Translations under genes and position numbers: made by a program
The notes under the pieces: model-generated
The model's input: the letters and a program-made list of their open reading frames with translations, nothing else
Database searches by the model: none
Told to the model about the DNA's origin: nothing
Shown: piece after piece, positions 44,823 through 50,679 of the stretch
How the letters are laid out: every line of letters begins with the position of its first letter
Numbering within the stretch: the first letter of the stretch is position 1
DNA from: Escherichia coli
GTDB taxonomy: Bacteria > Pseudomonadota > Gammaproteobacteria > Enterobacterales > Enterobacteriaceae
DNA: 64,000 bases
Assembly: GCF_030013205.1 (NCBI RefSeq)
Contig: NZ_CP122648.1
Direction: 5' to 3' (one strand)

Positions 44823-45791
<969 letters not shown>

Positions 45792-47936
45792 TTAAAGTGC
45801 ACACGAGACGCAGCCTTCAATTTCAGTGCCTTCCAGCGCCATCTGACGCAGGCGGATGTAATAGAGCGTTTTGATACCTTTGCGCCAGGCGTAAATCTGC
45901 GCTTTGTTGATATCGCGAGTGGTGGCGGTATCGGGGAAAAACAGCGTCAGCGACAGCCCCTGATCGACATGGCGAGTCGCTTCCGCGTAAGTGTCGATGA
46001 TCTTTTCTGCGCCAATTTCGTAAGCGTCCTGATACAGCGCCAGATTCTCGTTAGTCATAAACGGGGCAGGGTAGTAAACGCGTCCTGTTTTGCCCTCTTT
46101 GCGTATCTCTACTTTCGCCACAATCGGATGAATACTCGACGTAGCATGGTTGATATAAGAGATAGAACCGGTTGGCGGCACCGCCTGAAGATTCTGGTTG
46201 TAAATGCCGTAGCGCATCACGTCGTCGCGCAGCTGCGCCCACATCTCACGGGTAGGTAACGTAATACCGCTACGGGTAAACAGTTCGCCAACTTTCGCCG
46301 TTTTCGGCTGCCAGTTCCCTTGCAGATATTGGCTAAAATATTCACCACTGGCATAGCGTGACTGTTTGAACCCGGCGAAGGTTTCACCGCGTTCGCGCGC
46401 CAGCAACATCGAGGTACGCAGTGCGTGCCAGGTGATGGTATAGAAATAGAGATTGGTGAAATCCAGTGCTTCCGGCGACCCATAAGCGATGCCTTCTCGC
46501 GCCAGATAGCCGTGTAAATTCATCTGCCCCAGTCCGATGGCGTGTGAGGCGGCATTTCCGGCTTCGATGGACGGCACGCTGCGGATATGACTCATATCTG
46601 ATACTGCCGTTAAACCGCGCACGGCAGTCTCTACCGTGCGGGCAAAGTCGGGGGAATCCATGGTGTGGGCAATATTCAACGAACCTAAATTGCAGGAAAT
46701 ATCATGGCCTGTGCGGGCATAGTCGAGATTCTCGTCATACTCTGAGGCGCTGTTAACCTGCAAAATTTCTGAGCAGAGATTGCTCATATTTATGCGCCCG
46801 GCGATAGGGTTAGCACGGTTAACCGTGTCTTCATACATGATGTAGGGATAGCCGGACTCAAACTGGATTTCTGCCAGTCGCTGGAAGAAATCACGGGCGT
46901 TGATGTATTTTTTGCGGATGCGTTCATTGGCAACCAGTTCGGCATAGTGTTCACTGATGGCGATATCAGCAAACGGCTTGCCATAAACCCGCTCAACGTC
47001 ATAAGGCGAAAACAGTGCCATCTGCGCATTCTCTTTTGCCAGATGGAAAGTGATATCCGGGATCACCACGCCCAGCGACAGTGTTTTAATGCGGATTTTC
47101 TCGTCGGCATTTTCCCGTTTCGTATCGAGAAAACGCAGAATATCGGGATGATGGGCATGTAAATAGACTGCCCCAGCCCCCTGACGCGCGCCGAGCTGGT
47201 TGGCATAGGAAAATGCGTCTTCCAGCATTTTCATCACCGGAATCACGCCAGATGATTGATTTTCAATACGTTTAATTGGCGCGCCCGCTTCTCGCAGATT
47301 CGACAGCAAAAATGCCACGCCGCCGCCGCGTTTCGACAGTTGCAGTGCGGAATTTACCGCCCGGCCAATCGACTCCATGTTGTCTTCAATACGCAGCAAA
47401 AAACAGGAAACCAGTTCGCCGCGCTGCTGCTTACCACAGTTGAGGAATGTCGGTGTTGCAGGCTGAAAGCGTCCTGACAGCATCTCATCGGTCAGTTGCG
47501 TCGCCAGTGTTTCATCGCCTTGTGCCAGCATCAGCGCCATCATCGTGACTCGATCGGCAAAATCTTCCAGATAACGCTTACCGTCGAATGTCTTCAACGT
47601 ATAGCTGGTGTAAAACTTCCATGCTCCGAGGAATGTCTGAAAACGAAAACCGCTGGCGTGTGCGTGGGCAAACAGCGTAATGACAAAATCGCGAGAGTAG
47701 CGGTTGAGGACGTTTTCATCATAGTAACCTTCGTTGACTAGCCAGTTCAGGCGCTGCTGCTGGCTACTGAAGGTCACACTGTTCGGACGCACATGTGTCG
47801 CCATAAAGGCGTCAACGGCCTGGCGATCTTTATCGAACTGAATGCGACCTGCGCTATCGTAAAGGTTAAGCATCGCATTCAGCGCGTGGTAATCCATCGT
47901 TTCCTGCGTCAGGCGTTCTGCGGTTGTCGTTGCCAA
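45792..47936 (-). CDS. nrdE: Class Ib ribonucleotide reductase alpha subunit NrdE
   Basis: 714 aa, C-terminal CxxC...CVSCAL. Confidence 0.93.
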
Positions 47937-48319
47937 AATTCGGTTACTCCTTTACGAACGTTTTCGATATCGCTTTGCGTACCCATGAGTTCAAAGCGGT
48001 ACAACCACGGCACGCCGCATTTCCGGGCTATCACATCTCCGGCGCGGCCATACGCCTCACCAAAGTTGCGATTACCCGAAGCAATAACGCCGCGCAGCAA
48101 CGCCCGGTTGTGCTCGTCGTTTAAAAAGCGAATGACCTGTCGTGGCACCGCGCCAGCCGTACCGCCGCCGCCGTAAGAGGGCACGATCAGGATGTAAGGC
48201 TCGTCTACCTGAATCCGTTCCCGCTCATTGAGCGGGATGCGCACCGCGGGCAGCCCTAAACGTTCGATAAAACGCTGCGTATTTTCGGAGCTGCTGGAAA
48301 AGTAGACGAGCTGGCTCAT
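47909..48319 (-). CDS. nrdI: Flavodoxin-like NrdI
   Basis: 136 aa, [14 protein letters not shown] start. Confidence 0.92.
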
Positions 48320-48561
48320 GCACTGGCAGCGTGTGGCGCTGGATGCAGACGATTGATCATGTCCGGGCGGAAACCAGACCAGCTAAGATCGCCTGCAATC
48401 ACAACCGGCAACTGACGAAAGCCCTGAGCACGCAGCGCTTCCGCCGCTTCAGGAACGCGATCGACATTAATCATTTCAAAATCAAAGCCCCGGTTTTCCA
48501 TCGCCCGTTTGGTGGCGTGGCACTGAACGCAATCGTTACGAGTGTAAATGGTAATGCGCAT
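48316..48561 (-). CDS. nrdH: Glutaredoxin-like NrdH
   Basis: 81 aa, CVQC redox motif. Confidence 0.92.
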
Positions 48562-48730
48562 GATTCGTATTTCCGTTTAAAATGAAGATACGGCGCGATG
48601 ATACGCGTCGGGTTGTCTCTCTGTTGATACAGAGATACTATATGTAGTTGAAAAAAGATTCAACCATACAAGATATGGGAATTTTAGATTGATTACGCCA
48701 CCGATGAATGGCTCAACGGGGTAGGGGATT

Positions 48731-48748
48731 TTGTGTTTTTTTGCCGGG
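48731..48748 (-). terminator. Rho-independent terminator (GCCGGGTATTCACCCGGC + A/T-rich tail on minus strand) downstream of the CMD-family gene
   Basis: Hairpin followed by AAAAAAACACAAAA on minus strand, just past the stop at 48770. Confidence 0.6.
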
Positions 48749-48769
48749 TGAATACCCGGCATCAAGAAG

Positions 48770-49201
48770 TTACATCCGCATGGAAACGGCCAGACGGTTA
48801 AAACAATTCATCAGCCCGATGGCAAACGTTAAGTCGCTGATCTCTGCTGCGCTGAAATGCTCAAGCAAAGGCTGATAAACCTCGTCTTCCGCATGGGTTC
48901 TGGCAATTTCGGTTACCGATTCCGCCCATGCCAGCGCCGCCCGCTCGCGTTCATCAAAATGATGGCTTACGCGCCAACCTGCCAGGGCATCCAGTTTGTG
49001 CTGTGGCACGCCGGATTTGCGCAATGCTTTGCTGTGCATCTCCAGACAAAATGCGCAGCCGTTGATTTGCGAGACGCGCAAATAAACTAACTCCATCAAC
49101 GTGGTATCCAGCGTGCTATTTTCCAGTGCCGTTTTGGCCTGCACTAGTGCGTTATACACTGCCGGGCTAAGTTCGTAGTAAGGCTGACGTAATGTAGTCA
49201 T
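48770..49201 (-). CDS. Carboxymuconolactone decarboxylase (CMD)/AhpD-like family protein
   Basis: 143 aa with NGCAFCLEMH (CxxC...H) signature typical of CMD/AhpD-like peroxidase-type proteins. Confidence 0.7.
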   Translation of the reverse strand: MTTLRQPYYELSPAVYNALVQAKTALENSTLDTTLMELVYLRVSQINGCAFCLEMHSKALRKSGVPQHKLDALAGWRVSHHFDERERAALAWAESVTEIARTHAEDEVYQPLLEHFSAAEISDLTFAIGLMNCFNRLAVSMRM

Positions 49202-49288
49202 ACAGTTTCTCCTCTTATTAACGCCCGCAATGTAGCACTATAATGGACTGCTAAAGAGAGCCATAAATTACCTAAAAAAGCAGACCAT

Positions 49289-50623
49289 ATGCCGCGCTAT
49301 CAGGATATCGCCCGTCAGTTAAAAACGGCTATTGAGCAAGGGGAACTGAAACCCGGCGCAAGGCTGCCTTCAAGTCGTACCTGGTCGCAGGAGCTGGGGG
49401 TGTCTCGATCCACTGTCGAAAATGCGTATGCTGAGCTGGTGGCGCAAGGATGGCTGATCAGGCGGGGACAGGCTGGCACATTTGTCAGTGAGCGGATATA
49501 TCCGCAACAATCTACTGTACAAGTTGTAGCTTTTGCCGGTGAAAGTCAGCAACCGTTGCCATTTCAAATGGGATTACCCGCACTCGATCTCTTTCCGCGA
49601 GAGCTGTGGGCGCGGGTGATGGGGCGTCGCCTTCGTACCCAGACGCGCTTTGATTTGGCGTTAGGCGATGTCTGCGGTGAGGTGGCGTTGCGCGAGGCAA
49701 TAGTTGATTACTTACGCGTTTCACGTGGGATTGATTGTCAGCCAGAGCAGGTCTTTATCACTCACGGTTATGCGGCCTCAATAGCTTTAATTCTGCACGC
49801 GCTGGCGAAACCGGGAAACGGGATGTGGATAGAAGATCCCGGCTTTCCACTGATTCGCCCGATTGTCACTCGCCATGATGTGGAAATTTTGCCTGTGCCG
49901 GTTGATGACAATGGACTGGATATCACAAGCGGAATACAAAATTATCCTGATGCGCGTTTTGCCCTGATAACACCAGCACACCAAAGTCCGCTGGGTGTGG
50001 CGCTCTCTTTAGCGCGCAGGCATCAGATACTGGAATGGGCAGATCGTAGTCAGGCATGGATTATTGAAGATGATTATGACAGTGAGTTTCGCTATCACGG
50101 TAAGCCGTTACCGGCGTTAAAAAGTCTCGACGCACCGCAGCGGGTAATTTATGCCGGAACATTCAGCAAAGCGCTATTTCCTGCATTGCGCTGTGCGTGG
50201 CTGGTGTTGCCAGTGAAGCAAATTGCACAATTCCGCCACCAGGCGTCACTGGCTCCATGTGCGGTACCTGTTCTATGGCAGAACACACTGGCAGACTTTC
50301 TTCGCGAGGGGCATTTCTGGCGGCATCTGAAGAAAATGCGTCAGCATTATGCTCAACGTCGGCAATGGATTGAGCAAGCGTTGACGCAGCAAGGATTTCA
50401 GGTTGTGCCGCAGAAAGGTGGTATCCAGATGGTGATCAGAATGATAGGCGATGATATTGCCCATGCGCGTAAAGCCAATGCTGCAGGCCTTGCGGTGCAG
50501 GCACTTAGCGACTGGCGTATCCGTTCAAGTGGGGAAGGTGGATTACTGCTCTCGTTTACTAATATCGTTAACGAAGGTATGGCGCGACAGGTAGCACAAC
50601 AATTACGTAAAGCCTTAAGCTAA
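49289..50623 (+). CDS. MocR/GabR-type transcriptional regulator (GntR HTH fused to PLP aminotransferase-like domain)
   Basis: 444 aa; N-terminal GntR-like HTH (LPSSRTWSQELGVSRSTVENAYAELVAQGWL), C-terminal fold-type I domain with SK PLP-lysine context (TFSKALFPALR); divergent from CMD gene. Confidence 0.75.
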   Translation: MPRYQDIARQLKTAIEQGELKPGARLPSSRTWSQELGVSRSTVENAYAELVAQGWLIRRGQAGTFVSERIYPQQSTVQVVAFAGESQQPLPFQMGLPALDLFPRELWARVMGRRLRTQTRFDLALGDVCGEVALREAIVDYLRVSRGIDCQPEQVFITHGYAASIALILHALAKPGNGMWIEDPGFPLIRPIVTRHDVEILPVPVDDNGLDITSGIQNYPDARFALITPAHQSPLGVALSLARRHQILEWADRSQAWIIEDDYDSEFRYHGKPLPALKSLDAPQRVIYAGTFSKALFPALRCAWLVLPVKQIAQFRHQASLAPCAVPVLWQNTLADFLREGHFWRHLKKMRQHYAQRRQWIEQALTQQGFQVVPQKGGIQMVIRMIGDDIAHARKANAAGLAVQALSDWRIRSSGEGGLLLSFTNIVNEGMARQVAQQLRKALS

Positions 50624-50650: not shown

Positions 50651-50679
50651 AAAGACGCGTATTTATTATCATTATTGCA

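Follow-up and report, generated by a model that had tools for sequence, protein, structure and literature searches.

The two A/T-rich repeats upstream of nrdH in the 64,000-nucleotide stretch of Escherichia coli DNA analysed here (the window) are very probably the NrdR operator of the promoter of nrdHIEF, the operon for class Ib ribonucleotide reductase. That NrdR controls nrdHIEF is textbook knowledge for E. coli, and the site is already known from biochemical, structural and mutational characterisation. The gain for annotation is that both boxes are fixed to the base and that the window allele is a natural variant with all of the critical positions; mildly new are natural alleles of the promoter, linked with an insertion of two genes, and a rare single-nucleotide polymorphism (SNP) in the proximal box.

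Anatomy of the operator and its K-12 counterpart

The interval 48562-48769 fills precisely the space from nrdH to the next open reading frame upstream (Table 1), and it matches 5421 of 5426 complete E. coli genomes, with 100% identity in several swine isolates. The nrdR gene itself lies outside the window. Both of the strings to which a sequence-only reading had drawn attention are found on the plus strand, ACTATATGTAGTTG at 48637-48650 and ACAAGATATGGGAAT at 48668-48682, and they sit within two 16-mers, the boxes of Table 1, whose starts are 31 bp apart. Read on the gene strand, the operator is ...AAAAT TTCCCATATCTTGTAT GGTTGAATCTTTTTT CAACTACATATAGTAT CTCTG..., and it is located 74-120 bp upstream of the nrdH start codon, over the putative -35 and -10 hexamers. 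The proposal that the repeats resemble tandem NrdR boxes was right to within 2 bp, as judged by the base-for-base alignment with K-12, the six critical positions, the 15-bp linker and the 54/54 orthologous loci described below. Compared as direct repeats, the boxes are identical at 9/16 positions, and they are absent from the output of the repeat search; a better description is that each is an imperfect palindrome of the same motif.

Table 1. Features of the nrdHIEF promoter region and its surroundings, in window positions
Feature	Position	Strand	Remarks
Distal (upstream) NrdR box, TTCCCATATCTTGTAT	48666-48681	-	Ends 2 bp upstream of the putative -35 hexamer
Linker, 15 bp, GGTTGAATCTTTTTT	48651-48665	-	Includes the putative -35 hexamer TTGAAT
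Proximal NrdR box, CAACTACATATAGTAT	48635-48650	-	Includes the putative -10 hexamer TAGTAT
Putative transcription start region	48628-48630	-	5-7 nt past the -10 hexamer
Weak Fur-like hexamer cluster, over the nrdH Shine-Dalgarno sequence and start codon	48544-48574	.	11/19 three times; ChIP-exo peaks
Flank upstream of the distal box, equivalent of P87	48679-48714	.	Strongly diverged from K-12; Fur 10/19 and 8/14, noise level
nrdH, first gene of the regulated nrdHIEF operon	48316-48561	-	ORF and RefSeq annotation of identical DNA
nrdI	47909-48319		ORF and RefSeq annotation of identical DNA
nrdE	45792-47936		ORF and RefSeq annotation of identical DNA
nrdF	44823-45782		ORF and RefSeq annotation of identical DNA
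Carboxymuconolactone decarboxylase-family gene, 143 aa	48770-49201	-	RefSeq annotation of identical DNA
MocR-like PLP-dependent aminotransferase-family regulator gene, divergent	49289-50623	+	RefSeq annotation of identical DNA

The K-12 operator has been studied as a 57-bp probe, ACTAT-TTGCTATATATTGTGT-GGTTGAATCTTTTTT-CAACTACATCTAGTAT-CTCTG, in which the two 16-bp boxes, joined by a linker of 15 bp, have a flank of 5 nt on either side (Rozman Grinberg et al. 2025, PMC12176259). Purified EcoNrdR with ATP and dATP binds this probe with a KD of 138 ± 32 nM, and the same site is present in the cryo-EM complex (PMC12176259). Mutation of either box of the K-12 allele lowers the affinity for NrdR 530- to 1000-fold (Shahid et al. 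2025, PMC12051234). A single K-12 box, whichever one, is not bound by NrdR, and with ATP alone NrdR forms oligomers that are incapable of binding this allele. The conserved positions of an NrdR box are C4, A6, A8, T9, T11 and G13, and changes at positions 3, 5, 7, 10 and 14 have little or no effect (bioRxiv 10.64898/2026.05.11.724285). NrdR operators require a linker of 15-16 bp, which places the box centres 31-32 bp, or three helical turns, apart.

Alignment of the window with this characterised promoter bears out the NrdR reading: 42 of the 47 operator positions are identical and 5 differ, the linker is the same, and none of the six critical positions is altered, all of them being present in both window boxes. 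The distal box (TTCCCATATCTTGTAT in the window, TTGCTATATATTGTGT in K-12) differs at positions 3, 5, 10 and 15, and the proximal box by one change, C to A at position 10 (48641). With a 15-bp linker between 16-bp boxes, the box centres in the window lie three turns of the helix from each other. The window is identical to K-12 from GGTTGAATC across the start codon and on into nrdH, the SNP in the proximal box excepted; upstream of the distal box the flank, which comes after the two-gene insertion missing from K-12, has strongly diverged. Since every position of known importance is intact in the window allele, this allele should be bound and regulated by NrdR like that of K-12.

The core pair CNANATNTNG-N21-CNANATNTNG occurs once in the 64-kb window (both strands), against 0.00 occurrences expected from 100 shuffles; the single NrdR core is not unusual in the window, with 13 found and 17 expected. 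We also trained a position weight matrix (PWM) on the K-12 nrdAB and nrdDG boxes only, leaving out the nrdHIEF boxes to avoid circularity. Among 63,985 positions this leave-one-operon-out PWM ranks the proximal box 1st and the distal box 27th (6.9 bits). Scored as a pair, the boxes reach 22.4 bits, which is the window maximum and lies above all 100 shuffle maxima (mean 13.7, sd 2.3, largest 20.5), in keeping with the earlier suggestion of NrdR boxes. By the same PWM, the distal box of the window scores below the K-12 box.

Conservation among Enterobacteriaceae

A degenerate pattern covering nothing but the nrdH coding sequence, run over species-representative genomes, gave 56 Enterobacteriaceae loci; as the loci were chosen by a coding pattern, the selection is blind to the promoter. 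The strict core pair with a 15-bp linker is present in every locus that has enough upstream DNA (54/54), and the six critical positions are invariant in 51 distinct orthologous sites. Across genera, the variable positions of the distal box are 1-3, 5, 10 and 15, which cover all four of the differences between the window and K-12. Positions 4-16 of the proximal box are nearly invariant in the 51 sites; in the linker of the orthologues, GGTTGA is nearly invariant and the 3' part varies. Phylogenetic footprinting resolves three conserved blocks: one takes in the distal box and GGTTGA, another the proximal box and TAGTAT, and the third is the stretch of ~25 nt immediately ahead of the ATG. Because the proximal box contains the putative -10 hexamer, its conservation could partly reflect promoter function and not NrdR binding.

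The distal 16-mer of the window is also that of E. albertii, of Salmonella enterica subsp. arizonae and diarizonae, and of several Citrobacter species. From this shared occurrence in E. albertii, Salmonella and Citrobacter, the distal box of the window is probably a widespread, older form rather than a degraded box.

The first box begins 118-122 bp before the ATG in orthologues other than those of Buttiauxella and Cedecea; in these two genera the box pair begins 78-79 bp before the nrdH ATG, and the leader is ~42 nt shorter (loci L012, L016, L019, L020, L026, L028, L038, L042 and L043). Further upstream, a block at 48717-48726 (CCCTACCCCG), ~160 bp upstream of the nrdH ATG, is conserved between the two promoter types of E. 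coli and in E. albertii and Salmonella, with CCCATTCCCG as its Citrobacter counterpart; its flanks are unconserved. One contig labelled Chryseobacterium sp. 18061 (L017) carries an enterobacterial nrdH and an operator identical to that of Citrobacter sp. 18056 (L051), which suggests that the Chryseobacterium assembly is mislabelled or contaminated.

Core promoter, Fur contacts and competing readings of the repeats

The hexamers TTGAAT (48663-48658) and TAGTAT (48640-48635), with a 17-bp spacing, are nearly invariant in the orthologues, and we take them as the probable -35 and -10 elements of nrdHIEF; counted from the putative start region, the leader would be ~67-69 nt long. Together they make 8/12 promoter consensus matches and were not listed by a generic scan for promoters and terminators. 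That scan returned one promoter-like match (9/12, inside the leader) and one terminator-like match, both at chance rates, and these were set aside as neither fits the real elements. We also rejected a riboswitch or attenuator reading of the leader, as the fold of 48550-48630 has z = 0.01 against shuffles and no Rfam match was found at E <= 1. An imperfect 10-bp palindrome with a 4-bp gap lies at 48615-48638 (GTCTCTCTGT / ACAGAGATAC); it is identical in K-12 and unconserved in other genera. Since it spans the -10 hexamer and the putative start, it would not form fully in the transcript.

When bound, an NrdR tetramer would cover the core promoter, with the distal box adjoining the -35 hexamer and the proximal box holding the -10. 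Because the boxes cover the core promoter, NrdR bound there would be expected to exclude RNA polymerase, and the operon would hence be repressed when dATP is plentiful. In Salmonella, mutation of the NrdR2 box has no effect on nrdHIEF expression (PMC2892513), from which the weight of the two boxes in vivo may be unequal.

With a putative -10 hexamer inside the proximal box, a putative -35 inside the linker, and a lone NrdR core that is as common in the window as given above, the repeats might be read as core promoter sequence only (-10, -35 and A/T-rich spacer), their likeness to NrdR boxes being incidental. We regard this as highly improbable: upstream of the -35, in the place of the distal box, C4, A6, A8, T9, T11 and G13 are not needed for promoter function, yet precisely these positions are invariant among the orthologous sites, with the linker fixed at 15 bp; the paired core has no expected occurrences in the window; and the near-identical K-12 site binds NrdR directly, with both boxes needed. 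An activator, IscR, has also been considered for the distal repeat. Type II IscR sites have the skeleton AxxxCCxxAxxxxxxxTAxGGxxxT, which fits with 2 mismatches at 48658-48682 and at 48660-48684; the pattern is unspecific, with 152 hits in the window against 130 expected, and at this chance-level match rate the site cannot be placed by pattern. According to the Kiley laboratory (PMC8561392), nrdHIEF is among the promoters activated from a type II IscR site whose right half has the -35 hexamer embedded in it. We give next to no weight to the idea that the distal repeat is mainly part of such an activator site over the -35 hexamer and not an NrdR box. The fit at 48660-48684 is uninformative by the count just given, and on inspection the spacing of its half-sites departs from a clean CCxYA-N7-TRxGG; IscR and NrdR sites can overlap, which makes IscR an additional input and no alternative; and the distal box is required for direct NrdR binding (PMC12051234).

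The sequence-only reading had placed nrdHIEF under both NrdR and Fur, which agrees with published work (PMC12051234, PMC10164565), and had called the repeats NrdR/Fur operator repeats, a label of which the NrdR part stands and the Fur part does not. In 48562-48769 no Fur consensus match rises above noise: the best are 10-11/19 (GATAATGATAATCATTATC, 19-bp consensus) and 8/14 (7-1-7 motif), and 0.6% to 1.7% of window positions reach these scores. The repeats, or one of them, might be taken as Fur boxes for Fe2+-Fur repression of nrdHIEF from an 11/19 consensus match at 48626-48644 that overlaps the proximal box. We consider this very unlikely, since 11/19 is attained by 0.56% of all window positions, and this match is unconserved in the orthologues (at -83; mean 7.8, range 4-11). 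In the published ChIP-exo data, Fur peaks are placed over the start codon and, for K-12, additionally on the upstream side of the distal box; none falls on the boxes. Moreover, an oligonucleotide with the originally predicted Fur box bound Fur extremely weakly, the model giving it 1.4 or -3.4 bits (PMC2189734); that box is ~600 bp upstream of ygaC and so inside the ygaM-nrdH intergenic region (PMC2189734). The flagged repeats are not Fur boxes, and the idea of a Fur function in them is hereby corrected; Fur and IscR act on the nrdHIEF promoter, but not via these repeats, which we assign to NrdR.

The evidence on where Fur does act points to the nrdH start codon. The operon is in the core Fur regulon of all nine E. 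coli strains of Gao et al. (2023, PMC10164565), with a log2 derepression of nrdH of 3.1-7.9 in fur deletion. In MG1655, the ChIP-exo peaks P88 and P89 (2798743-2798772 and 2798753-2798761) correspond to nrdH nt -2..+28 and +9..+17, a placement that assumes the older U00096.2 numbering and an offset of 1978 that we infer (PMC10164565). The CFT073 peak is at 3081261-3081273, with the nrdH start at 3081260 (nt +2..+14), and that of 042 at 3062850-3062862, with the start at 3062852 (nt -2..+11) (PMC10164565). Transferred to the window, the start-codon peaks correspond to about 48545-48563, at the edge of the interval or outside it. The three 11/19 Fur matches of this region begin at 48544, 48550 and 48556 and are thus phased by 6 bp. 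The sole positionally conserved Fur-like signal in the 56 orthologues is at -13 (mean 11.4/19 against a background of 5.3 ± 2.2), in a region that is also constrained by translation and coding. An information-theory model gives a 10.1-bit Fur site 728 bp upstream of ygaC in K-12 (Chen et al., PMC2189734), a position that coincides with the nrdH start. We therefore name the cluster of Table 1 as the best-supported Fur contact; Fur at the start codon would fit a roadblock or a clash with the open complex, rather than classical occlusion of the -35 and -10.

Several further observations concern Fur. The 25 nt up to and including the nrdH start codon (48559-48583, CATTTTAAACGGAAATACGAATCATG) are almost invariant in the 56 Enterobacteriaceae loci; this invariance exceeds what a Shine-Dalgarno sequence needs and is in the same place as the Fur ChIP-exo peak. 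A further MG1655 peak, P87, spans -152..-118 relative to the ATG and touches the distal box from its upstream side (PMC10164565). In E2348/69 the 8-mer CGTAATCA, which lies at 48690-48697 within the P87-equivalent flank of the window, was called a Fur box on bioinformatic grounds (Cendra et al.). Near the operon, the highest Fur-like score (14/19, AATAATGATAATAAATACG) belongs to a box on the minus strand at 50658-50676, just 3' of the ygaM stop codon; its K-12 version (13/19) is 244 bp upstream of the nrdH ATG, and the insertion shifts that of the window to 2.1 kb. The MG1655 ChIP-exo tables contain no Fur peak at this box.

Natural promoter alleles and comparison with Salmonella

Upstream of the interval, two accessory genes are inserted between ygaM and nrdH (48770-50623), with ygaM and ygaC beyond them in the RefSeq annotation of identical DNA. 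CFT073, 042, Sakai and E. albertii have this insertion, K-12 and Salmonella arizonae do not; lacking the two genes, K-12 MG1655 has ygaM directly upstream of nrdH. Just past the stop codon of the nearer inserted gene, a perfect 8-bp G+C-rich hairpin with a 4-nt loop lies at 48742-48761 (TGCCGGGT / ACCCGGCA). On the strand of that gene an A run, not a T run, comes next, so the hairpin is no canonical intrinsic terminator in either direction. Its GCCGGG/CCCGGC stem recurs, though the loops differ, in E. albertii and a cryptic Escherichia clade.

The upstream flank of the window type is found in 1388 of 5420 complete E. coli genomes (~26%), the remainder being of the K-12 type. The two promoter types are identical from the -35 downstream and diverge sharply over ~50 bp upstream (48666-48716 in the window, 2072-2119 in L002), until similarity returns in a short block farther upstream; the breakpoint is located within the distal NrdR box. 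The window-type flank is nearer to Salmonella and Citrobacter than to K-12. The exact 57-bp operator of the window is much rarer, occurring in 18 of the 5420 genomes, the examples listed being swine isolates; it is so rare because of the C-to-A change at 48641. This change gives the proximal box an ATAT centre and makes it more palindromic; it further gives rise to TATAGT, which agrees with the -10 consensus at 5/6 positions and is spaced 15 bp from the -35.

Nearly all experiments on the nrdHIEF promoter have been done on the K-12 type. Within the diverged segment fall the distal NrdR box, the IscR site that has been reported and the upstream Fur peak of K-12, and hence the two natural alleles might weight control by NrdR, Fur and IscR differently; likewise, the change at 48641 could alter basal expression in a swine-associated lineage. 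We hold both of these to be unlikely. The dimorphism could nevertheless matter when Fur and IscR data from the K-12 promoter are extrapolated to pathogenic lineages. In the published nine-strain data Fur repression is kept in both promoter types (PMC10164565): 042, CFT073 and Sakai, which have the insertion and promoter type of the window, are derepressed 9- to 240-fold in fur deletion, and the ChIP-exo peaks in the strains of that study are at the nrdH start codon, away from the flagged repeats. We discarded a relation between promoter type and the size of Fur derepression. Sakai (3.1) and CFT073 (3.5) have the lowest log2 values but 042, of the same type, has the highest (7.9), and with window-type strains both highest and lowest of the nine there is no simple effect of the allele.

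Outside Escherichia, the closest characterised system is nrdHIEF of Salmonella, for which repression by NrdR and by Fur have both been shown genetically (Panosa et al. 2010, PMC2892513). The functional Fur box there was assigned to a position 309 bp upstream of the start site (PMC2892513), and the 208-bp intergenic region of the window has none comparable. The setting of the promoter also differs, with ygaM and REP-like repeats directly upstream in Salmonella and the two inserted genes in that place in the window. The operator itself is shared: in Salmonella enterica subsp. arizonae and diarizonae, the distal box of the nrdHIEF promoter is identical to that of the window and the linker is nearly identical.
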